Below, one piece after another: positions 15,020-49,564 of a stretch of 64,000 nt of DNA. Under the pieces are notes generated by a model that ran no database searches, was not told where the DNA came from, and saw only the letters and a list, made by a program, of their open reading frames with translations. Both the position numbers and the translations under genes were made by a program. The stretch comes from Alphaproteobacteria bacterium (GTDB lineage Bacteria > Pseudomonadota > Alphaproteobacteria > Rs-D84): assembly GCA_015062445.1 (NCBI GenBank), contig SUUQ01000005.1:1668-65667 (forward strand), written 5' to 3'. The first letter of the stretch is position 1. Each line of letters opens with the position of its first letter.

Positions 15020-15567
15020 CAGAAACTGTAATTTATCCCCATCCCCAGGAAGTTAAATCCCCGGTTTAGTTCTGTAAAATCACCATTGGAAAAGTGCAGG
15101 GTAAAAATCTCGGCATGCAGTTTGTCTGTGAGATTTTTTCCAACAAAAACCTTTTCACCGAACACCAGTCTGCTTTCCACATATTTATCGCCACTGTCAC
15201 GCATATATGGTCCGATTCCTGCACCGACATACCAACCGCACCACGATGCCAGGACGACATCCCATGATACCCCCATTGCGCCAAATGATGTCCCATCTGC
15301 GCTGCGGTATGCGATGTTTTGCAGCAAACTGATATTAACACGTGCCGGCAACCGCAGTAATTTTATTGGTTGGCTGTACTGCAGCATGGCCAATGTCATT
15401 GGGTTGATATTCCAATCCCAGGGCAGTATCAGATGTCCCAAATCGCCCTGGCCAGTACCCTGGGCAATCCAGATGCCGAAACTGTTTTGTGTATTGTTTG
15501 CAAACATTGGGTTTGCATTTGCCCTGGTTGCCAGCATGCATGCGCATAAAATCAGAAATTTTTTCAT
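15019..15567 (-). CDS. Small outer-membrane beta-barrel protein, PagL-like (possible lipid A deacylase)
   Basis: Signal peptide, alternating amphipathic strands, and a C-terminal '...GINYSF' (terminal Phe). 'LHFSNG...E' near the C-terminus resembles the His-x-Ser-Asn(Gly) active site of PagL. Confidence 0.45.
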   Translation of the reverse strand: MKKFLILCACMLATRANANPMFANNTQNSFGIWIAQGTGQGDLGHLILPWDWNINPMTLAMLQYSQPIKLLRLPARVNISLLQNIAYRSADGTSFGAMGVSWDVVLASWCGWYVGAGIGPYMRDSGDKYVESRLVFGEKVFVGKNLTDKLHAEIFTLHFSNGDFTELNRGFNFLGMGINYSF

Positions 15568-15651
15568 AGGGAAATTATATTCACAAAAATGAACATTATC
15601 TATCAGACAGAATTCTTAATATTTGTTTGTCTTTTGGGCTTTAATTATTGT

Positions 15652-15679
15652 TTACAGAAATAAAAAAAATTGATATAAT
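15652..15679 (+). promoter_or_regulatory. Strong sigma70 promoter with extended -10 (TTTACA, 16-nt spacer, TGaTATAAT)
   Basis: TTTACA at 15652-15657 and TGATATAAT at 15671-15679. The 87-nt leader that follows contains a stem-loop 'ttccgatatttttcggaa'. Confidence 0.5.
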
Positions 15680-15765
15680 TAAACAAACAAGACATGCGGC
15701 ATGCATGTTGTAACGTCACAGAAAGGTTGGATTTCCGATATTTTTCGGAATACAGGGAGAGTTTA

Positions 15766-17910
15766 ATGAAAAGTCAAAAAATTGCAGATTCTGTCAAGAA
15801 TGCGGTCAGTACAGTATTTTTACTGGCTGGTGCTTTTTTTGTATGTTCAACATTGTTATCTATGCGTTCTGTTTTGGCGGATCCGATTGCGCCGGTTGAT
15901 GCAAATATGTTGTTGGGCCCCCAGTCTGGGCGGCGGGATGCAGCAACGGCACGTGCGCCTGGTCGGACCAGTCCACGAAATTCAGTATCACGTACGACTG
16001 TTGCCCGTACGGCTGTGCCTGGTGGTGTTACAAATGTGGCGCCTGCGGCGGGTCGTGGTAATACTGTGACGTCACGTGCGGTTACATCTCGTGCTGCGAC
16101 AAATCGTGCTGATGCGGCGGCGGGGCGTGTAAATTCAAATGGTTCACGTAATGTTGTTTCACGTAAAAGTGCGGTGACGACCCGTGCCAACGCGGTTGCG
16201 AACCGCGCTGTACGTGCCCGTACTGCAACAACAGACATGGCAAGTAATGCCCGTATTTCCCTGCAGGGCAGTGCGATACGCGGTTCCAAGACATCGACCG
16301 GTTCGTCATATTCCTATTTGACAGGCAAATTATACACTGGCAATTACTCAAATATCATCGATTCAACAACAGGTTTGATTTCAACAGACGCATTTAATAA
16401 TTGTATGGAAAGTTATTATACATGTATGGATGAAATTTGTACTGCGCGAAATGCGGCCCAACGTCGTTGTGCCTGTGCAGGTCGTGTTCGCGACTTTGCC
16501 GAGGCGGAAACAGCCCTGGAAACCGCCAACGAAGAATTGATTAAGGTTTCAGGTGAATTGGCCCTGTTAATTGCGAACAAGGGTAAAGATGTATCCGAAG
16601 CGTTCCAATTAACCGATGCGGAAAAGGTTATGAACTGTGTTTCCTGGCAAGATGTAACGAAAAAATACGGCATGGATTCCAGCGAGGCAATAGATTGGTG
16701 CTATAACCATGGAATTTATGGCAGTGGCGGCGGTCGTGTGTCGTCCTGTGCCCAGCCATCATATTGTTCTGAATCTGGCAATGATTTTGGCTTTAACGTT
16801 TCCAGTTTGGATGGCAGTGGTTCGGACATATTGGCATCCTTACAGGCCTGGGCTGATGCCAAAGAGCAAACATTAACGATTATCACCGATAACACAGACA
16901 CATTGTTGTCTGCGTTTGATAACCTGTCATCGGTTGTCAGTGGCATGGCCGGGATTGGTGGTGCATTATCTGTATCAGATACCTTGTCAGACTCGCTGGC
17001 AGAAACATGGGGGTATGAATTGTTTGAATATGCCCACAACAACGTTTGTGCCCGCGTGCTGGATTCGTGCTTTAACGGTATATTTGAGGCCTGCGGTACC
17101 CCGCCATCTGGCACCAAGTGCAGCAATGGTGCGTCCCAGTGTCCATATAATTACAACAGTCACATAACTGTAAACAACACTGGTACATACGAATTGAACT
17201 TTGTTAATGCGTCCAGTGGTTACAGTGCATCAAATTCTGCAACATGCTTTGGTTATACATCTGCATCTGGCGATCCGTATTCCAGTCTGCGTGGTCCTGT
17301 TGCAGATGCGCGCCGCAGCATTATGCAAAAATATGCACTGGACGCGAACGCCGACTGTGATGCGTATGGCGAACAGTTGCGTGCCACCGCGCAAAACATT
17401 GGTTATCAAAAGGTTGCCGCCCAACAGGCGCTGCAACAAAAGCGTCTGGAATTTGCCCGCGAAGAATCTGATTCTATATTATCCGCGGCGATTCAGGCCG
17501 GTACAAACTTTAACGAATGTATCAGTGAAATTTATGACTGTTATGAAACACAGTTGACATCAAATCCATCATGGCCGGATGCGCGTATCAGAACATATTG
17601 TTCCCAGATTGCGAACGTTCCGCATTGCTATGAAGAAATGATTTGTAATCCATCGACATCCCAGTTCAAAGCCGTTATTGACCAAGCGGATTCGACAAAC
17701 TGTGATAACACCCAGGATTACACAACAAACACATGTCGCAATATTGTTACATTGAACGAAATCCTGAACGGAACAGGTGCTGGCAATATTGGTTCTGACT
17801 TTGACCCATACACCAGCAAGGATTCTGCCACCATCCGCGAAGACTGTTTGATTGACAGCGGGGTTGACAGTATCCGAAAATGGTTTGAAGAAAATCGTCA
17901 GAAACAATAA
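15766..17910 (+). CDS. Large secreted protein: disordered Arg/Thr/Ser/Ala-rich N-terminal region plus a Cys-rich C-terminal domain (paralog 1)
   Basis: Start at MKSQKI with RBS 'acagggagag' and a signal peptide. Low-complexity segment 'SRAVTSRAATNRADAAAGRV...'. More than 30 Cys in the C-terminal 500 aa. 'C..Y..CMD..C...........RC.C' is shared with the next gene. Confidence 0.75.
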   Translation: MKSQKIADSVKNAVSTVFLLAGAFFVCSTLLSMRSVLADPIAPVDANMLLGPQSGRRDAATARAPGRTSPRNSVSRTTVARTAVPGGVTNVAPAAGRGNTVTSRAVTSRAATNRADAAAGRVNSNGSRNVVSRKSAVTTRANAVANRAVRARTATTDMASNARISLQGSAIRGSKTSTGSSYSYLTGKLYTGNYSNIIDSTTGLISTDAFNNCMESYYTCMDEICTARNAAQRRCACAGRVRDFAEAETALETANEELIKVSGELALLIANKGKDVSEAFQLTDAEKVMNCVSWQDVTKKYGMDSSEAIDWCYNHGIYGSGGGRVSSCAQPSYCSESGNDFGFNVSSLDGSGSDILASLQAWADAKEQTLTIITDNTDTLLSAFDNLSSVVSGMAGIGGALSVSDTLSDSLAETWGYELFEYAHNNVCARVLDSCFNGIFEACGTPPSGTKCSNGASQCPYNYNSHITVNNTGTYELNFVNASSGYSASNSATCFGYTSASGDPYSSLRGPVADARRSIMQKYALDANADCDAYGEQLRATAQNIGYQKVAAQQALQQKRLEFAREESDSILSAAIQAGTNFNECISEIYDCYETQLTSNPSWPDARIRTYCSQIANVPHCYEEMICNPSTSQFKAVIDQADSTNCDNTQDYTTNTCRNIVTLNEILNGTGAGNIGSDFDPYTSKDSATIREDCLIDSGVDSIRKWFEENRQKQ

Positions 17911-42753: not shown

Positions 42754-43353
42754 TTACCTAGACTTTTTATTTATCAGACTGTCTCTTTGTGATTCCAGCA
42801 TTTTTAATTTTTGCATCTGCACAGCGACTTTTGCATTTGTTGTGCTGTCAAAGTGTTTTTGTATACTGCTGGACAGATTTTCCAGTTTTTGTTTTTGTTT
42901 ATCAAATTCTTCGATTTTTTTTTCGTTCATATAAATCTGCCAGTATGCATTTTTAACCGCCGGCAGGTGATAAAAGTCATAGAACATTTTTTTATTTCTG
43001 CGAATTTTTGCATCAGGTGCATCTGCACGTGCTGCGAAAAAGGCCTCGTCAGTCAAGACGCGATTTTTGTATTTCAGATCATCGATTGCATGCTGGTTTT
43101 TCATGACCCAGTCATTTTCTGGGTGTTTGTTCAGTGAATCTCTGACCAGCAACGGCACGACAGACCGCAAACTGTCCACAGATTTACGTGTTTTCAAAAT
43201 TTGGTTTTCTGTATTGGCCAGTTTTTCCTGTATTTGCTTTTCTTTTTCGCCATACTGCACAATCAGTGTTGTGATTGTTGCCATAACTGCAAAGAACACA
43301 ACGACTTCGAAAATACCACTCAGCGATTTTTTAAAGTTTTCATATTTATCCAT
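42754..43353 (-). CDS. N-terminally membrane-anchored coiled-coil protein (199 aa)
   Basis: TM 'VVVFFAVMATITTLIV' followed by a Lys/Glu/Gln-rich coiled coil. Same architecture as the neighbour. Confidence 0.5.
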   Translation of the reverse strand: MDKYENFKKSLSGIFEVVVFFAVMATITTLIVQYGEKEKQIQEKLANTENQILKTRKSVDSLRSVVPLLVRDSLNKHPENDWVMKNQHAIDDLKYKNRVLTDEAFFAARADAPDAKIRRNKKMFYDFYHLPAVKNAYWQIYMNEKKIEEFDKQKQKLENLSSSIQKHFDSTTNAKVAVQMQKLKMLESQRDSLINKKSR

Positions 43354-43394
43354 AATTCACACCCAAAAAATATAATATCTGTATGTAAGGTTTA

Positions 43395-43575
43395 CGTCAC
43401 GAGATATCCCGTTTCACCCCGTGCCAAAAGGTTGATTCTTGGCACCCCCAACGGGAAACCGAGTGAATAAAAACCGCATGAGTTGCGTTATTAGCAACGA
43501 ATGACTGGTTTGCGTCACAAGGTTCGCCGTTTCACCCCGTGCCAATTGTTTGATTCTTGGCACCCCCAACGGGAA
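43395..43575. repeat. Two ~63-nt direct repeats (43395-43457 and 43513-43575) comprising the 3' 18 nt of tRNA-Glu plus 45 nt of its 3' flank
   Basis: 'cgtcac..gtttcaccccgtgccaa..ttgattcttggcacccccaacgggaa' occurs twice with a 118-bp period. The second copy is the genuine tRNA 3' end. Confidence 0.85.
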
Positions 43576-43632
43576 TCGAACCCGTGTTGCCAGAATGAGA
43601 ATCTGATGTCCTGACCGCTAGACGATGGGGGC
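43558..43632 (-). tRNA. tRNA-Glu (anticodon read as CTC)
   Basis: A 75-nt cloverleaf on the minus strand: GCCCCCA acceptor, GTCT/GGAC D-stem, anticodon loop TTCTCAT, T-loop TTCGATT, terminal CCA encoded. Confidence 0.8.
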
Positions 43633-43669
43633 AAATTTTTAACTGTTTCTGTACATAATATACAAAATC

Positions 43670-44500
43670 TTGCGATTTTCAAATGAAACTTTTCCCTTGC
43701 AGCATATTTTTTTATGTCCTAGGATAATTGTCGTTATGGCTATTTCTATACGCAGTTTTTTTACAAACATCATTTGTGGTTTGATACCTTCGCGCGATTT
43801 GCGACATCGTGTTCGTGTGTTTTTGAATAATCCGTCTTGTCGATTGTACATCAGATTTGTTCGTGAATGGGCGGAAAAAAACCGTGGTGGTGTACGCAAG
43901 ATAAAGATATCGTTGGGTTGTGGATGTCAAAACTTGGTTGTTTTGTTAAACGATTCAGATGTGTTTAAATTTCCATTGCATTCTGGTGGTAACGAACTTG
44001 CCCAGCGCGAGTTGCGAATTTATTCTGCATTGCGCACGATAACGCCAATTCCGATGCCGTCCATGGAAATTATCCATTGGCGCGGTCTGGTCGTTCGCAG
44101 ATATGAATTTATTCGTGGTAAATTATTGTGTGATTTTCCCACAGACAGTGTGTTGGTGCATCGTGAACATTTGGCGAAACAGTTGGCAAATTTCATGTAT
44201 ATCATTGGTTGCGCTGACCCGACCCAGATACGCGATATCAAGCCGTCAAAAACATCGCGTCCGGGGTTCATGTATGGGTGGTTTCACAATGATATTGGTC
44301 AGAATTTTCTGATGGATGACGACATGAACATTATTTGTTTTCTGGATTGGGAAAATACCCAGTTTTGTGATTTTCGTGAATCCTTGCGCCATGCCGAGCG
44401 CTTTTGGAACAAGAACGGCTATCGTGGTCTGATGACGGATGTTTTGTCGCAGTATTCCAGGTTGTACTATTCGTCTCAGGGGCAGTTTTTAGGTGAATAA
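43670..44500 (+). CDS. Aminoglycoside/choline-kinase-like phosphotransferase-family protein
   Basis: Brenner motif 'HNDIGQNFL' and Mg-binding 'LDWENTQF' (ID[F/W]E). A likely alternative start is MAISIRS at 43736. Sits between two tRNA genes. Confidence 0.5.
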   Translation: MRFSNETFPLQHIFLCPRIIVVMAISIRSFFTNIICGLIPSRDLRHRVRVFLNNPSCRLYIRFVREWAEKNRGGVRKIKISLGCGCQNLVVLLNDSDVFKFPLHSGGNELAQRELRIYSALRTITPIPMPSMEIIHWRGLVVRRYEFIRGKLLCDFPTDSVLVHREHLAKQLANFMYIIGCADPTQIRDIKPSKTSRPGFMYGWFHNDIGQNFLMDDDMNIICFLDWENTQFCDFRESLRHAERFWNKNGYRGLMTDVLSQYSRLYYSSQGQFLGE

Positions 44501-44542
44501 ATGCCTTAATTGCTGTAAAATACCCACAAACAAACACAGGAG

Positions 44543-44926
44543 ATGCAGATGACAGATATAGTAAATGAACTTGTAAACATTGCACAACAAGAATTGGTAA
44601 AACATGCACAAAGATTGGATCGTTTGGTTGCGTCAATGAATGCGGTCGATTTTGACCCTGGTGTAGAATCGGTCCAATCGGTCCGTGAAATGATAGAAAA
44701 TCAATCGAAACTGTATGATGTTGTTTTTGATATGCTAAAAACCGCATTGGAACAGCATCGTAATTTAATGTTGGCCATGGGCACCATGAATCAGTCTGTC
44801 CAACAGGATATCAATGCCACTACCGATTCAATTGATGCGATGTTGCATGCACTTGAACAAATGTCCAAGGCCGCTATCGAATCAATTGATTTGACGTTGA
44901 GTACACTTGAAAAAATGTCGCGTTAA
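44543..44926 (+). CDS. Hypothetical protein (127 aa, helical)
   Basis: ORF with RBS 'acaggagatgcag'. No family recognised. Confidence 0.4.
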   Translation: MQMTDIVNELVNIAQQELVKHAQRLDRLVASMNAVDFDPGVESVQSVREMIENQSKLYDVVFDMLKTALEQHRNLMLAMGTMNQSVQQDINATTDSIDAMLHALEQMSKAAIESIDLTLSTLEKMSR

Positions 44927-44929
44927 AAA

Positions 44930-44960
44930 ATATCCACCGCCCCCACGGGCGGTTTTTATT
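44930..44960 (+). terminator. Rho-independent terminator
   Basis: 'ccgcccccacgggcgg' followed by a T5 run. Confidence 0.65.
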
Positions 44961-44967
44961 TACACAA

Positions 44968-45210
44968 TCCGTGACGTATACCAAATAAAAAATGCCCCCT
45001 GTGGGCATTATTTATTTTGGTTGGGGCGCACACAGGGGAGTGGGGATGTTCCCCACTAGTGTTTTGGGAAATCTGTGATTTTTCGAAACACGTACAAAAC
45101 ATTGATAATGTTTTGGTGTACAATCACTGTAACTGATTGTACAAATCGTGACGAATAGCAAAATAAAAAATGCCCCTTGTGGGCATTGTTTTATTTTGGT
45201 TGGGGCGCAC
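44968..45210. repeat. Two ~65-nt direct repeats (44968-45031 and 45145-45210): the tRNA-Gln terminator hairpin plus the tRNA 3' 14 nt
   Basis: '..cgtgacg..aaataaaaaatgcccc(c/t)tgtgggcatt.ttttattttggttggggcgcac' occurs twice. Only the second copy continues into the full tRNA. Confidence 0.85.
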
Positions 45211-45270
45211 GGATTCGAACCATGATAAAGAGAACCAAAATCTCTTGTCCTACCATTAGACGACACCCCA
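45197..45270 (-). tRNA. tRNA-Gln (anticodon TTG)
   Basis: A 74-nt cloverleaf on the minus strand: TGGGGTG/CGCCCCA acceptor, anticodon stem AGAGA/TCTCT with loop TTTTGGT, T-loop TTCGAAT, CCA encoded. Resembles E. coli tRNA-Gln. Confidence 0.8.
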
Positions 45271-45506
45271 AAAGCAACATTGATTATAATTATCTTTTGT
45301 AAATTTGCAATAACAAATTTTTGTTTGGCTAAAACCGTGATAGGTTTCTGGTTATGTCGCACAAAAACGGTGGTCAAAAAACGACATTGTTCCTGGTGGG
45401 TATTTTATCACAAATCTGGCAAAAATCACAGAAGAAAAATGTCGTTTTTTGACCACCGTCAAAAATCGACATTGGCAAAGGTATATAAAACCCAGGGAGG
45501 ACAAGG

Positions 45507-46445
45507 GTGAGGGCTCTTTTTTACAGTGCAATTTTTTCGATTTTATGCACACCGTGTTTTGCAGACGTATTGCCATTGGATGATGCGTTGCGTTCCACAT
45601 ATCGTGCGTGTGTTGGTATTGACGACCAGTTAAACGATTTGCGTCGCATGGCGGGCATCAACACTGCGATAACTGCGGCTGGTACTGCGGCAGGGGCTGG
45701 TGCGACTGTGGTTGGTATTGTTAAAACGTCCAAGGATAAAAAGGCAGAATCGCTAGAGGCCATATTAAATGAAATCAAAGAAATGACACAAAATTCTGCC
45801 CCGATGACCACAGATGAAATTGACAGATTTATGTTTGAATTTAATGCGTACTATGAAACTGCGCTGAAAAGCACTGATTCCATACAATCAGAACTGGACA
45901 AGACGGTTGCCCAGTCTAAAAAGTTGGGTAATTGGCGAACAGGTTTACTGGCGGGCGGCACAGCCACCAACATTGCCGGTGCGGTTATTGCCAGTTCGAA
46001 CAAGGTTGACGGTGATATTTTTGTTCAAATAGAGCTGTGTAAAACATCTGTTGCGAATTTGCGCAACTCGATTATCCAGGCCCGTCTGAACGGCCAAGAC
46101 ATAACCGAGGCCGAGGAAATCATCCGTTTATGTGGCGAATATGATTATGCAGATTTGTCGAAAATTAATACCAAGGCCCGTGGTGCGACAATTTCGTCTG
46201 CGATTGGTGCGACCACTGGTGCGGTTGGTACGGTACTGTCGGCCAGTGCGAATTCCCAGAAAGTGCGTGACGATAATACAGACACGGGCAAACATCGTGA
46301 AAAGAATCTGAACACGGCATCGAATATAATGGCGGGTGCGACGACTGCGGCCTCTGCGACGGCGACCATATTTAATGCGACCCAAATTGGTGCGATACGT
46401 CGTGTATCAGACATTGCAGAAAAATGCACGGAGGTATTGAAATGA
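45507..46445 (+). CDS. Secreted helical Ala/Gly/Thr-rich protein (312 aa)
   Basis: Signal peptide 'MRALFYSAIFSILCTPCFA'. Repeated 'AGTAAGAGATVVGIV'-type segments. Its stop overlaps the next start (ATGA). Confidence 0.6.
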   Translation: MRALFYSAIFSILCTPCFADVLPLDDALRSTYRACVGIDDQLNDLRRMAGINTAITAAGTAAGAGATVVGIVKTSKDKKAESLEAILNEIKEMTQNSAPMTTDEIDRFMFEFNAYYETALKSTDSIQSELDKTVAQSKKLGNWRTGLLAGGTATNIAGAVIASSNKVDGDIFVQIELCKTSVANLRNSIIQARLNGQDITEAEEIIRLCGEYDYADLSKINTKARGATISSAIGATTGAVGTVLSASANSQKVRDDNTDTGKHREKNLNTASNIMAGATTAASATATIFNATQIGAIRRVSDIAEKCTEVLK

Positions 46446-49400
46446 AGAAAGTAATAACGACATTAATATGTTTTTTACTGACATTTTCTGCAAACGCAGC
46501 TGATGTTTTGTTGAAACTGAATTCTGAAACATTGGGTGCATCTATCAGCAGTCATTTTTCCGCAGAAGATGCAGTAAATGTAGCCATTCGTGTTCGAGAT
46601 TTGTTGGAAAAATCACCAGATGGCATTTCTGCTGTTGATATGTGGTCTGTTTGCACGGCCGGTGGCATAAAAATAGAAGAAAACTCGGGCAAGGCCAGAT
46701 GTCAGGCATTTTTACAATCGCTGGTTACATTTTCTGACAAAAATTATGTTCGTGTATGCAATGCGAATGAATTCAAGAAAATCTTGGATACAAATATTCG
46801 TGACATATCAAAATGCGAGCGGGAATTCTTTAACAAAACAAATGTTCAGTTGGTCCAAGCGGTTGAATTGGCCAAGATGTATGCGCGTGTAAAATGGAAC
46901 GATGACGGTGTTGTTTGCAGCAATACATACAACCAGGCCGAAAATGATGATTGGTTATCATGTAAATCGCTAAAAACTGGTGCGTTTTACGAATTTAAAT
47001 TTGACGATGTAAAAGAGTCGATTGACAACAGGATTCAAGATGATGTTCGTGACAGTGTGTGCAGACTGTACGATGGTTCCTGGTCTGCGGGTGATTACTG
47101 TGCATCTGTAACACCAGAAACCTGTGATAAAATATCTGATGGTTCCAAGACACTTGGTGTCCAGGTCGAATGGAAATCTGACAAATGTTATCTGTTGTTC
47201 CACCAGATAAGTGATTTCAGTGAAATCAAACAGGGCTGTGGTATTGATCCGTTAACGTTCTGTCGCAAACGTGACTTGCAGTTGCAATCTAATTTGGGGT
47301 TATATGATTTGTTGCAACAGCATGTATCTGACAAGTGTGGAACCCCCATGCACGATGTTCGTTGTGACGCAACATTTAAAACATTTCGTGGAACCAGTGG
47401 TGGTTGCAACCTGGGGATATTTGCACAAAAAGATGATATTATTTCATGCTATGCGGGCAATCAGCAGATAGATTTCTTGATTGACGATGTTAATGAATGG
47501 AGTGATAGCCGTGCCCAAGCAGGTCAACAGGGGGTGATGTGTATCACAGAAAACGGTACATTTGACGGCAAAAATTGTGTTGCCCTGAACGAGCAGGCGT
47601 GCACTGCATTGCAACAAGAAAACGCAACAGTTTGTCCAGAATGTAAAGAGGTTGAATGGGACCCAGGGCTGGGGTTGTGTGTTTTGAAATCTGCCCGTGC
47701 CATGACCAGAATCGACAAAGCCGTTGAATTTACTACGGCGGCTGGTGTTGTTGTTGCAGGTGTTGCCGTTGGTGTGTTGACTGGTGGTGCGGCGGCGCCA
47801 GGGGTTTGGGCAATTGTGGCCAAAACAGGAAGTGTATTGTTATACGCAGGTGGCGCAGCCGTTGTTGGGTCTGAAGCGGTTATGACATATGGAATATGGG
47901 ATCCGTTTGTAAAAGCTGCAAATAAATGTATTTTAGAAAATGATGCCAAATGTGCAGAAGATTTGGTTGTTCGCGAACTGAATTCTATGCAAAGTTATTC
48001 CGAAGATTTGACAGATAACGAAGCGGCTGCACTGGATGAAACATTCAAACATCTGATACAGATGATACCAGAAGATTCTGAATTCTGGACAGATTTCTTT
48101 GGAAATCCTGAATTCTTTGATTGCACTGTTCCTACCGATCCACAAACATGCGTTGTCAAAGAAAGTGCACAGTTCTGGCAGGTTGCAAGAACTGCTGGAA
48201 ACACCATGATGATTGCGGGTGGCGCACTAAAGATGCTGTCCAATATGGGGACGATATTCAAACAATCCAGGGAACTTCTGCGTCTAAGGGTTGAAGCAAT
48301 GCCACGGCATAAAAATATCGGGGTTTTGGCCCAGGTTAATGCATGGGGAACGCGTGGGATATCAATGCCCAATCGGATAATTCCAGAAGTTGCTGCAAAG
48401 CTGGGGTTGAACAATGTCACAACGAATTCGGAACTTGTAAAGGCGATGGGCTGGAAAGTTGGCCAAGAATTGATGTGGAATCCTACTACGCAAACAATCG
48501 TCCAGGGTGCGGCTATGAATCCATATGGTTTGGTGCCAATCGGTATTGGCACAGGTGGCTTGATTATGGTTCCAGACGATACTGATTTTATTGTTCAGCG
48601 TTCTTGGGCACAGGAATCAAACGAAATCCCAGAACCCGAGGTTATTCTTGATGACATTGTCATTGATGATACGATTGAACCACTGCCAACGGATATTGTG
48701 TTCGATGACACAGTGATTGTTGTGCCGCCGCGTAAGGTTCCAACGGTAAAACCTGGGGCAGACGAAATTCCAGAACCCGAGGTTATTCTTGATGACATTA
48801 TCATTGATGATACGATTGAACCGGTTCCCAATAATTCTGATTTCAATTCAGATCAGATCTATGTCTCGCCGATTCCGGTGTCTGCCGATGCGGGGCGTAA
48901 TGTTCAACCGTATTCTGTTGAACGTTCTGGCGGACGTGGTTGGATTGCCGCGGCAACTGTTGCGGGGCTGGTCGGAACAGGTGTACTGGTCGGTACATTG
49001 GTTGGCAAAGATCGCAATGATTCCAATAAATCAAATACCAACACATCAGGCAATTCTGCACTGGAATCGCTGATGGTTGTGGCAGGTGGGGTATTGGGAT
49101 ATGTAGACAACAATGAAATTACATTAATACCACTGCCAACTGTATTAAATACATACGCACCAATCGTGGATATAAACAATCGTGCAGTGGTTGTGGTGTT
49201 GTATCGTGGGTATAATCTGCCGTATTATCTGGATGCATCGGCTGGCACATGGGTTCCATTGCTGGGGATTGGTGCAAATGGCGGCTGGTTTAATACGTAT
49301 CCACAAACACCAACAACCGGTATATCTAAATTGGATGATATTACCCAGCTGTTAAATCGCATGCTGATGCCACGCACGGTTTCGCCATATGTTGGCCAAA

Positions 49401-49564
49401 ATGCGTCCGGGGTCCAGTTCCCATCAGCATCGACATTGGCATATTCGACAATAAATGCCATGTTCCCATTAGGTGTTGTAACTTCGTACAATGGCACGTT
49501 CAGCCCATCTGACCAGAAATTGTATGACAACAATTATCAAAAGATGCGAAATCTGTTTAACTAG
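46442..49564 (+). CDS. Large (1041 aa) secreted/membrane-anchored Cys-rich protein with an internal 47-aa tandem repeat
   Basis: Signal peptide 'MKKVITTLICFLLTFSANAADV'; more than 35 Cys in the N-terminal 420 aa; hydrophobic segments 'AAGVVVAGVAVGVLTGG' and 'WIAAATVAGLVGTGVLVGTLVG'; acidic repeat 'EIPEPEVILDDI(V/I)IDDTIEP' occurs twice. Confidence 0.7.
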   Translation: MKKVITTLICFLLTFSANAADVLLKLNSETLGASISSHFSAEDAVNVAIRVRDLLEKSPDGISAVDMWSVCTAGGIKIEENSGKARCQAFLQSLVTFSDKNYVRVCNANEFKKILDTNIRDISKCEREFFNKTNVQLVQAVELAKMYARVKWNDDGVVCSNTYNQAENDDWLSCKSLKTGAFYEFKFDDVKESIDNRIQDDVRDSVCRLYDGSWSAGDYCASVTPETCDKISDGSKTLGVQVEWKSDKCYLLFHQISDFSEIKQGCGIDPLTFCRKRDLQLQSNLGLYDLLQQHVSDKCGTPMHDVRCDATFKTFRGTSGGCNLGIFAQKDDIISCYAGNQQIDFLIDDVNEWSDSRAQAGQQGVMCITENGTFDGKNCVALNEQACTALQQENATVCPECKEVEWDPGLGLCVLKSARAMTRIDKAVEFTTAAGVVVAGVAVGVLTGGAAAPGVWAIVAKTGSVLLYAGGAAVVGSEAVMTYGIWDPFVKAANKCILENDAKCAEDLVVRELNSMQSYSEDLTDNEAAALDETFKHLIQMIPEDSEFWTDFFGNPEFFDCTVPTDPQTCVVKESAQFWQVARTAGNTMMIAGGALKMLSNMGTIFKQSRELLRLRVEAMPRHKNIGVLAQVNAWGTRGISMPNRIIPEVAAKLGLNNVTTNSELVKAMGWKVGQELMWNPTTQTIVQGAAMNPYGLVPIGIGTGGLIMVPDDTDFIVQRSWAQESNEIPEPEVILDDIVIDDTIEPLPTDIVFDDTVIVVPPRKVPTVKPGADEIPEPEVILDDIIIDDTIEPVPNNSDFNSDQIYVSPIPVSADAGRNVQPYSVERSGGRGWIAAATVAGLVGTGVLVGTLVGKDRNDSNKSNTNTSGNSALESLMVVAGGVLGYVDNNEITLIPLPTVLNTYAPIVDINNRAVVVVLYRGYNLPYYLDASAGTWVPLLGIGANGGWFNTYPQTPTTGISKLDDITQLLNRMLMPRTVSPYVGQNASGVQFPSASTLAYSTINAMFPLGVVTSYNGTFSPSDQKLYDNNYQKMRNLFN
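48623..48822 (+). repeat. Intragenic near-identical 59-nt direct repeat (48623-48681 and 48764-48822)
   Basis: 'gaaat(c/t)ccagaacccgaggttattcttgatgacatt(g/a)tcattgatgatacgattgaacc' occurs twice with a 141-nt period. Confidence 0.9.

Follow-up and report, generated by a model that had tools for sequence, protein, structure and literature searches.

What is a second copy of the 3' end of a transfer RNA (tRNA) gene doing a short distance downstream of the gene itself? The question is raised by a 64-kilobase (kb) stretch of contig SUUQ01000005.1 (hereafter the window, which denotes the whole stretch analysed), assigned by placement of its GyrA to Candidatus Enterousia, Alphaproteobacteria, order Rs-D84. 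In this stretch the last 14 nucleotides (nt) of a tRNA-Gln gene are repeated downstream of the gene, and a tRNA-Glu gene nearby has a comparable copy of its own 3' end. A direct repeat of the 3' part of a tRNA gene is a classic signature of integration, and arrays of att-type partial tRNA fragments can accumulate (PMC9897764; tycheposon preprint). A preliminary description of the locus saw in the copies the possible borders of a decayed integrative element. We argue for a different answer. The 178-nt interval downstream of tRNA-Gln is, with a probability that we put at roughly 0.6, one copy of a tRNA-linked, structured non-coding repeat unit resembling the RtT repeats of Escherichia coli and expressed as RNA in the direction of the tRNA. 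The distal copy that had been taken for a scar is the unit's own 3' end and not a scar of integration. The anatomy of the unit is RtT-like, comprising a terminator-type hairpin, a 5' segment, two to four hairpins, a cognate core of 14-19 nt with CCA, and the trailer of the tRNA.

Anatomy of the repeats in the window

The 14-mer GTGCGCCCCAACCA consists of the last three nucleotides of the T stem, the 3' strand of the acceptor stem, the discriminator base and the encoded CCA of tRNA-Gln. The 64-kb window contains just two exact matches to it, 45197-45210 and 45018-45031, each on the minus strand, compared with about 0.10 occurrences expected by chance. Similarity between the two sites continues beyond the 14-mer through a terminator hairpin and about 20 further nt, giving a repeat of about 70 nt in total with about 85% identity and a start-to-start distance of 178-179 nt (proximal copy at about 45141-45210, distal copy at about 44963-45031). 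Only 112 nt of non-coding DNA lie between the copies. The preliminary description had already recognised this repeated unit, the 3' 14 nt of tRNA-Gln plus a terminator hairpin present twice at a distance of about 178 nt; exact search and alignment confirm it, and the limits then given, 44968-45031 and 45145-45210, are correct within a few bases. Read along the minus strand, the tRNA-Gln locus contains the following features.

45283..45310, minus strand: promoter-like site of tRNA-Gln, TTGCAA-N16-TATAAT (consensus scan, 10/12 positions)
45197..45270, minus strand: tRNA-Gln(UUG) with encoded CCA (ARAGORN; Rfam tRNA, 57.7 bits)
45197-45210, minus strand: core 1, the last 14 nt of tRNA-Gln, GTGCGCCCCAACCA (exact search)
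45161..45196, minus strand: terminator hairpin 1, with its stem-loop at 45169-45187 (terminator scan; helix 1 of the consensus fold)
45023..45159, minus strand: body of the unit, of the type that we call W (single-sequence fold, 8-unit consensus fold, covariance model R1)
45147-45153, minus strand: 5' strand of the closing stem, or 'anticore' (predicted fold)
45117-45143, minus strand: hairpin A (predicted fold)
45095-45115, minus strand: hairpin B (predicted fold)
45059-45091, minus strand: hairpin C (predicted fold)
45039-45057, minus strand: hairpin D (predicted fold)
45027-45034, minus strand: 3' strand of the closing stem, including the first 5 nt of core 2 (predicted fold)
45018..45031, minus strand: core 2, identical to core 1, CCA included, and forming the 3' end of the unit (exact search)
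44983..45017, minus strand: terminator hairpin 2, with its stem-loop at 44991-45009, a copy of terminator 1 (repeat alignment; terminator scan)
44963..44982, minus strand: end of a partial second unit (alignment of the copies)

The promoter-like site at 45283..45310 is the only one found upstream of the Gln unit on the minus strand, and the arrangement TTATTGCAAA-N16-TATAAT upstream of tRNA-Gln is kept across the genus. Terminator hairpin 1 is preceded by an A-tract and followed by a U-tract, as in terminators of the bidirectional type. Both Gln hairpins (45169-45187 and 44991-45009) are predicted to resemble intrinsic terminators on both strands and have the form predicted for rho-independent termination, a G+C-rich hairpin and then a U-tract. 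In the predicted fold the last 9 nt of core 2 (CCCCAACCA) are single-stranded. In the partial second unit the anticore region is still represented, as CGTCACG at 44970-44976; no third core follows it, so the Gln array is about 1.4 units long, one full copy and a 0.4-copy stub.

Two other identities for the Gln unit were considered and set aside. A 12-nt match in the same register of 178 (45098-45109 and 45276-45287), as if the promoter had been duplicated too, prompted the idea of a degenerate whole tRNA gene; this was ruled out because the region after the -10 element varies by species, the 12-nt match is not kept, and the Rfam tRNA model misses the units. A coding unit comparable to Tpr was rejected on the grounds that no open reading frame (ORF) is conserved in frame or start across eight W-type units.

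The tRNA-Glu gene presents a shorter version of the same arrangement. Its last 18 nt, TTCCCGTTGGGGGTGCCA, are found at 43558-43575 and again at 43440-43457, with 0.00 occurrences expected by chance, which substantiates the similar 18-nt feature, at a spacing of 118, that had been described as a tRNA-Glu scar. The cores sit in a 69-nt repeat of 87% identity (43507-43575 and 43389-43457, spacing 118) whose copies are separated by about 50 nt of non-coding DNA.

43655-43682, minus strand: promoter-like site of tRNA-Glu, TTGAAA-N16-TATTAT (consensus scan)
43558..43632, minus strand: tRNA-Glu(CUC) with encoded CCA (ARAGORN; Rfam)
43558-43575, minus strand: Glu core 1, the last 18 nt of tRNA-Glu (exact search)
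43440..43557, minus strand: short-type Glu unit of 118 nt, ending in Glu core 2 at 43440-43457 (repeat search, fold)
43389..43439, minus strand: second, incomplete Glu unit, repeating the ~51 nt that follow the core (repeat alignment)

Between tRNA-Glu and its unit the terminator scan detected nothing terminator-like on the minus strand. The short-type Glu unit is predicted to fold into a rod in which the 5'-proximal AACGG and GGCAC pair with CCGUU and GUGCC of the core, and in a consensus fold from seven species 7 of the 29 pairs have compensatory changes. A further promoter-like site, GTGACG-N17-TATTAT (43372-43400, minus strand), overlaps the distal end of the Glu repeat and faces an ORF of 199 amino acids (42754-43353), so that transcription of this ORF may adjoin, or receive input from, the tRNA-Glu unit. 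Both tRNA genes lie on the minus strand with each extra copy 3' of its own tRNA, and the copies consequently do not bracket the segment at 43.64-45.2 kb that had been proposed as an islet.

Occurrence, predicted fold and constraint of the units

Enterousia genomes are smaller than 1 megabase (Mb) and about 90% coding (PMC12306168). A scan of GTDB provided 80 species loci with 10-kb flanks; L-numbers below are labels of the related loci or contigs that were compared, and the related-locus set used for motif and covariance-model screens amounts to 1.59 Mb, window included. An exact-protein look-up also returned ten near-identical metagenome contigs with the layout of the window.

In species representatives as well as in contigs from gut metagenomes, one to three tandem units lie 3' of tRNA-Gln; they measure about 171-185 nt and all terminate in the identical 14-mer. 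Exact Gln cores recur at periods of 171-182 nt on the 3' side of tRNA-Gln in 14 GTDB species loci; extra cores number from 0 to 3 per species, total core counts are highest in L084 (four) and in L046, L083 and L089 (three each), and cores are degenerate in L029, L039 and L064. The pattern core-N150-180-core retrieved 18 gut-metagenome contigs, in 17 of which the array starts at tRNA-Gln. The eighteenth, L094, was excluded, having no tRNA and only a chance 14-mer in an unrelated G+C-rich tandem repeat of 183 base pairs (bp), present in 2.1 copies between two protein genes (L094:1804-2180). Extra cores accompany other tRNA genes as well, at 113-188 nt from tRNA-Glu in 21 loci and at 194 nt from tRNA-Cys in L013; none was found at the sampled genes for tRNA-Trp (n=3), tRNA-Gly (n=2) and tRNA-Tyr (n=1). 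The Gln units fall into types W (that of the window), M1-3 and X, whose combination and order vary by species, for example W then M in L046, M then W in L083, and M2-M1-M2 in L084. Covariance model R1, built on the W units, scores 141.5 bits on the window unit, and throughout the 1.59 Mb it matches only 3' of tRNA-Gln and on the same strand.

Eight homologous W-type units share a consensus fold in which the terminator hairpin is joined by a closing stem and four further hairpins; it has 57 pairs, and 96.2% of cells are paired. Eighteen of these pairs have changed on both sides, compared with 9.5 +/- 1.8 in column shuffles (0/500 reach 18) and with 1-4 in controls in which the partner was slid. 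Helix 1, the terminator hairpin, has five pairs with compensatory changes, and helices 2-3 of the closing stem are 94-100% paired with one-sided changes only. G-U cells outnumber A-C cells by 25 to 5, an excess that favours the tRNA strand as the RNA strand. Folded as a single sequence, the Gln unit of the window reaches -55.6 kcal/mol (z = -6.5).

Constraint on primary sequence points the same way. The unit body of the window is 77-88% identical to those of L046, L083 and L029, where four-fold sites of gyrA are only 46-58% identical and near saturation, which argues for strong selection on the unit. Judged by these comparisons, the DNA between the copies is a conserved, structured unit under purifying selection and not decayed filler. 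Hairpin B (AAAACATTATCAATGTTTT, 45095-45115, minus strand) is near-invariant between species, its loop included; this pattern suggests a sequence-specific contact rather than structure alone.

The cores also track the tRNA to which they belong. The 3' strand of the tRNA-Glu acceptor stem differs by lineage, reading GGGAC, GGGAG, GGGGG or CATTGGGAC, and the distal Glu core carries the variant of its own genome's tRNA-Glu in 20 of 21 loci, all three GGGNN variants being found within one homologous family of short-type Glu units. Such matching is not expected of a neutral scar. When 5' segments were compared with cores, the cognate core gave the best duplex energy in its row for the Gln-M, Gln-X, Glu-short, Cys and E. 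coli Tyr units. Complementarity of the 5' segment to the core was rejected as a universal 'anticore' rule, since it holds in five of seven unit types and fails, on tRNA-derived bases, in W and Glu-long.

Proposed expression, rival explanations and gene neighbourhood

A mechanism consistent with these observations can be outlined. The unit would be transcribed in the direction of the tRNA from the tRNA promoter, the Glu unit by direct co-transcription with tRNA-Glu, there being no terminator between them, and the Gln unit by read-through of terminator 1. Since its 3' terminus and its trailer are those of the tRNA, the unit would presumably be processed back to CCA by the enzymes that mature tRNA 3' ends, as happens with E. 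coli rtT RNA. This would leave a stable RNA about 135-180 nt long whose tail, single-stranded and ending in ...CCA, resembles that of a tRNA; speculatively, this RNA would act as a mimic or decoy towards factors that recognise the 3' end of the cognate tRNA. Changes in copy number, and the continued identity of the cores with the tRNA, could result from unequal homologous recombination or gene conversion involving the ~70-nt core-terminator-anticore modules. Tentatively, and as a generalisation that we consider rather doubtful, RtT-like units might belong to a general class of small RNAs that has arisen repeatedly and independently: mimics of the tRNA 3' end, each tethered to its cognate tRNA and co-evolving with it, matured by the machinery that forms tRNA 3' ends, and directed at factors that recognise those ends in processing and repair, CCA addition, charging or stress signalling.

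Several observations weigh against a structured RNA of this kind. The consensus scan detected no sigma-70-like promoter inside the Gln unit, and a strong-looking intrinsic terminator stands between tRNA-Gln and the unit, so that expression of the Gln unit by read-through could be low. The Rfam RtT model does not match the Enterousia units. The closing stem of the W type uses only the first 5 nt of the core together with 3 flanking nt; the W 5' segment paired with the core alone yields -4.9 kcal/mol, no better than shuffles, and the Glu-long 5' segment fails the complementarity test (-6.8 against a shuffled mean of -11.1). Covariation was counted in a small set, eight sequences with some close relatives among them, and one alignment served both to predict the structure and to count the changes. 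For the M type, the consensus fold from a MAFFT alignment is weak at -9.3 kcal/mol; this probably stems from a misaligned 5' segment, and single-sequence folds of M-type units are more consistent than that consensus.

Conservation of the hairpins could also reflect a function at the level of DNA. The units would then be a hairpin-rich recombination module, or a miniature mobile or cassette-boundary element specific for tRNA ends that folds as single-stranded DNA in the manner of integron attC sites or REP/RAYT substrates, and the locus a hot spot for gene insertion and removal. The differing orders and combinations of W, M1-3 and X units by species fit this proposal, as do insertions placed exactly between tRNA terminator and unit (a GIY-YIG gene in L011, L044 and L049; a 3.4-kb block in L054), the lack of a promoter inside the Gln unit, and the long palindrome that core, terminator and anticore make up in several types. 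We nevertheless judge it unlikely. No transposase or recombinase was found nearby, units were not seen apart from the cognate tRNA anywhere in the 1.59 Mb, unit and core differ from one tRNA to the next, so that no single mobile sequence exists, and the maintained ratio of 25 G-U to 5 A-C cells fits RNA better. Neutral tandem duplication, in which slippage or unequal crossing-over copied the tRNA 3' end with its flank and left functionless copies, would explain the head-to-tail arrangement, whose last copy is incomplete (1.4 units in the window), the variation from 0 to 3 extra cores, and the degenerate cores of L029, L039 and L064. It sits poorly with unit bodies far more alike than four-fold sites, with compensatory changes that keep 96% of cells paired, with the retention of units in genomes below 1 Mb, and with an architecture shared by three tRNAs here and E. 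coli tyrT, and we regard it as improbable.

Least probable of all, and largely refuted, is the possibility that the repeats are attL/attR-type scars left by a decayed element that targeted tRNA genes, whether a prophage, an island or a tycheposon-like element, with the two tRNAs bracketing an islet. The repeat does have the classic form and starts within the T stem or T loop, a frequent position for att cores; the neighbourhood also differs among species. Yet the period of 171-185 nt is constant and free of ORFs in dozens of genomes, and the DNA between the repeats is structured and selected. No recombinase came to light either: Pfam recognised no recombinase domain in the two ORFs between the tRNAs; a crude motif screen of the six-frame translation of the 1.59 Mb, with a pattern that recovered the box sequences of lambda Int, XerC and XerD, gave 0 credible matches to the tyrosine-recombinase box; and no recombinase was among the top 25 Pfam families listed for 150 ORF representatives. 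The junction was absent from the phage, plasmid and virus DNA searched, exact-pattern scans of IMG/VR giving 0 hits and blastn against phages and plasmids (INPHARED, PLSDB) no match. The supposed cargo is also unremarkable. An APH-like gene lies near tRNA-Glu in about 20 other species, and this synteny counts against an islet; the composition of 43640-45200 is ordinary, with a G+C content of 0.407 against 0.437 for the window and a tetranucleotide distance at the 86th percentile of equal-sized windows. The decayed integrative element of the preliminary description is accordingly not sustained.

The ancestral gene order of the region is gyrA, MerR, the ORFs of 188 and 199 amino acids, tRNA-Glu, variable genes that often include the APH-like gene, tRNA-Gln, MarR and efflux genes. 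The APH-like ORF of the window (43736-44500) matches Pfam APH weakly (E = 0.037), and ORFs of the same region in relatives reach 1e-15; its counterparts beside or near tRNA-Glu in the other Enterousia species share 35-63% identity with it. The second ORF between the tRNAs, of 127 amino acids, is patchy in occurrence among relatives, its protein has no Pfam family, and it contains an internal tandem duplication of 54 nt (18 codons) with 80% identity at 44812-44919 on the plus strand. On the 5' side of tRNA-Gln, genes for putative secreted proteins of 312 and 1046 amino acids (45507-49564, plus strand) stand between tRNA-Gln and MarR in the window species only. In at least 11 relatives the distance from tRNA-Gln to the start of MarR is about 150-250 nt, and homologues of the 312-amino-acid protein are located elsewhere in the genomes of other species, which together identify the two-gene block as a local insertion. 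Upstream of the 312-amino-acid ORF, at 45367-45459, lies a 26-nt inverted repeat, 96% complementary with 41 nt between its arms, possibly an operator or a terminator. A G1-U72 wobble caps the tRNA-Glu acceptor stem genus-wide, and in the lineage of the window the tRNA has compensatory changes at pairs 2-71 and 3-70 (GCCCCCA/UGGGGGU vs GGUCCCA/UGGGACU).

The earlier expectation that DNA adjacent to the tRNAs varies held good among relatives, in four of which (L011, L044, L049 and L054) a GIY-YIG gene or a three-gene block lies between a tRNA and its unit. In the first three, a GIY-YIG nuclease ORF of about 81 amino acids (PF01541, E = 3.6e-16) is found directly 3' of tRNA-Gln, between the tRNA-Gln terminator and a remnant W unit with its core (L049:19611-19856, minus strand; L044:18610-18855 and 15457-15930, minus strand; in L011 downstream of tRNA-Gln). 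The two GIY-YIG copies of L044 flank about 2.9 kb of unrelated ORFs. This gene may represent a homing-type insertion. The block in L054 (L054:8743-12251), which comprises three genes including a homologue of the 312-amino-acid protein, separates tRNA-Glu and its terminator from an intact long-type Glu unit and core 3.4 kb away; the detached core still bears the tRNA variant of its lineage (CATTGGGAC), and either a unit is able to persist detached from its tRNA or the insertion is recent.

Comparison with known systems

Attachment-site partial tRNAs of islands, prophages and tycheposons resemble the Enterousia repeats in that the 3' part of a tRNA recurs in direct orientation beyond the intact gene, with variable DNA alongside. 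The Enterousia units differ from such scars in their fixed spacing, in the conserved, structured DNA between copies, in the lack of cargo between the window copies and of any recombinase found, in similarity that extends about 55 nt past the tRNA end, and in a copy that co-evolves with the tRNA. We advise against automatic annotation as an att scar or an island boundary wherever a short piece of a tRNA 3' end recurs downstream. Small RNAs (sRNAs) cut from tRNA 3' external transcribed spacers, such as 3'ETS-leuZ of E. coli, offer another comparison; their source spacers are single and unrepeated, and the tRNA 3' end is not copied in them. The likeness lies in the mode of production, in that a functional RNA would be cut from a tRNA trailer by the tRNA-processing machinery.

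The closest counterpart is the tyrT-tyrV locus of E. coli K-12, which has four 178-bp units, each ending in the 3' 17-19 nt of tRNA-Tyr with CCA, and one annotated sRNA, rttR. As cited in PMC3318445, rttR is encoded by one of the repeat units (Bosl & Kersten 1991). In both systems tandem units of about 178 bp (178 in the window, 171-185 in relatives) lie directly 3' of the tRNA on the same strand and end in a copy of its 3' end with CCA, exact over 14 nt for Gln and 18 nt for Glu and over 17-19 nt for Tyr. The predicted structures agree as well: the Rfam RtT consensus (RF00391) has a closing stem and a free 3' tail of 9 nt, and in the Enterousia units the 5' segment and the tRNA-derived start form a closing stem that leaves about 9 unpaired 3' nt. 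Internal hairpins in both carry the T-loop-like motif GGTTCGA.

The two sets of units nevertheless share no detectable sequence or profile homology. RF00391, with a gathering threshold of 45 bits, scored 133-137 bits on the four E. coli units that served as positive control, and it gave no match on the window at gathering, on 43300-45350 at E <= 10, or on L069, L063, L014 and L083 at E <= 5; no Rfam family matched the units at gathering or relaxed thresholds. Other differences are biological. The host is an alphaproteobacterium and not an enterobacterium, separate unit families belong to each of three tRNAs (Gln, Glu and Cys), an intrinsic terminator hairpin precedes both the Gln and the Cys units, a Tpr-like ORF is lacking, and the Gln core is 14 nt long. 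Because the architecture matches E. coli RtT while the Rfam model misses it, we regard the Enterousia unit as a new variant of the RtT-type tRNA-linked repeat.

To our knowledge, the 178-bp repeats of E. coli tyrT with their rtT RNA are the only described example of their kind. The present units place the same architecture in a distant lineage, at several tRNAs, and in genomes stripped of most dispensable DNA. Covariation, purifying selection and co-evolution with the tRNA acceptor stem together argue that this architecture is functional and able to arise or persist broadly, and dozens of natural variants are at hand for sorting out which parts of the unit matter. If the units do encode RNAs that mimic tRNA 3' ends, their presence at three tRNAs in a genome below 1 Mb would imply an important function, and they would provide a comparative handle on the role of E. 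coli rtT, described in 1991.

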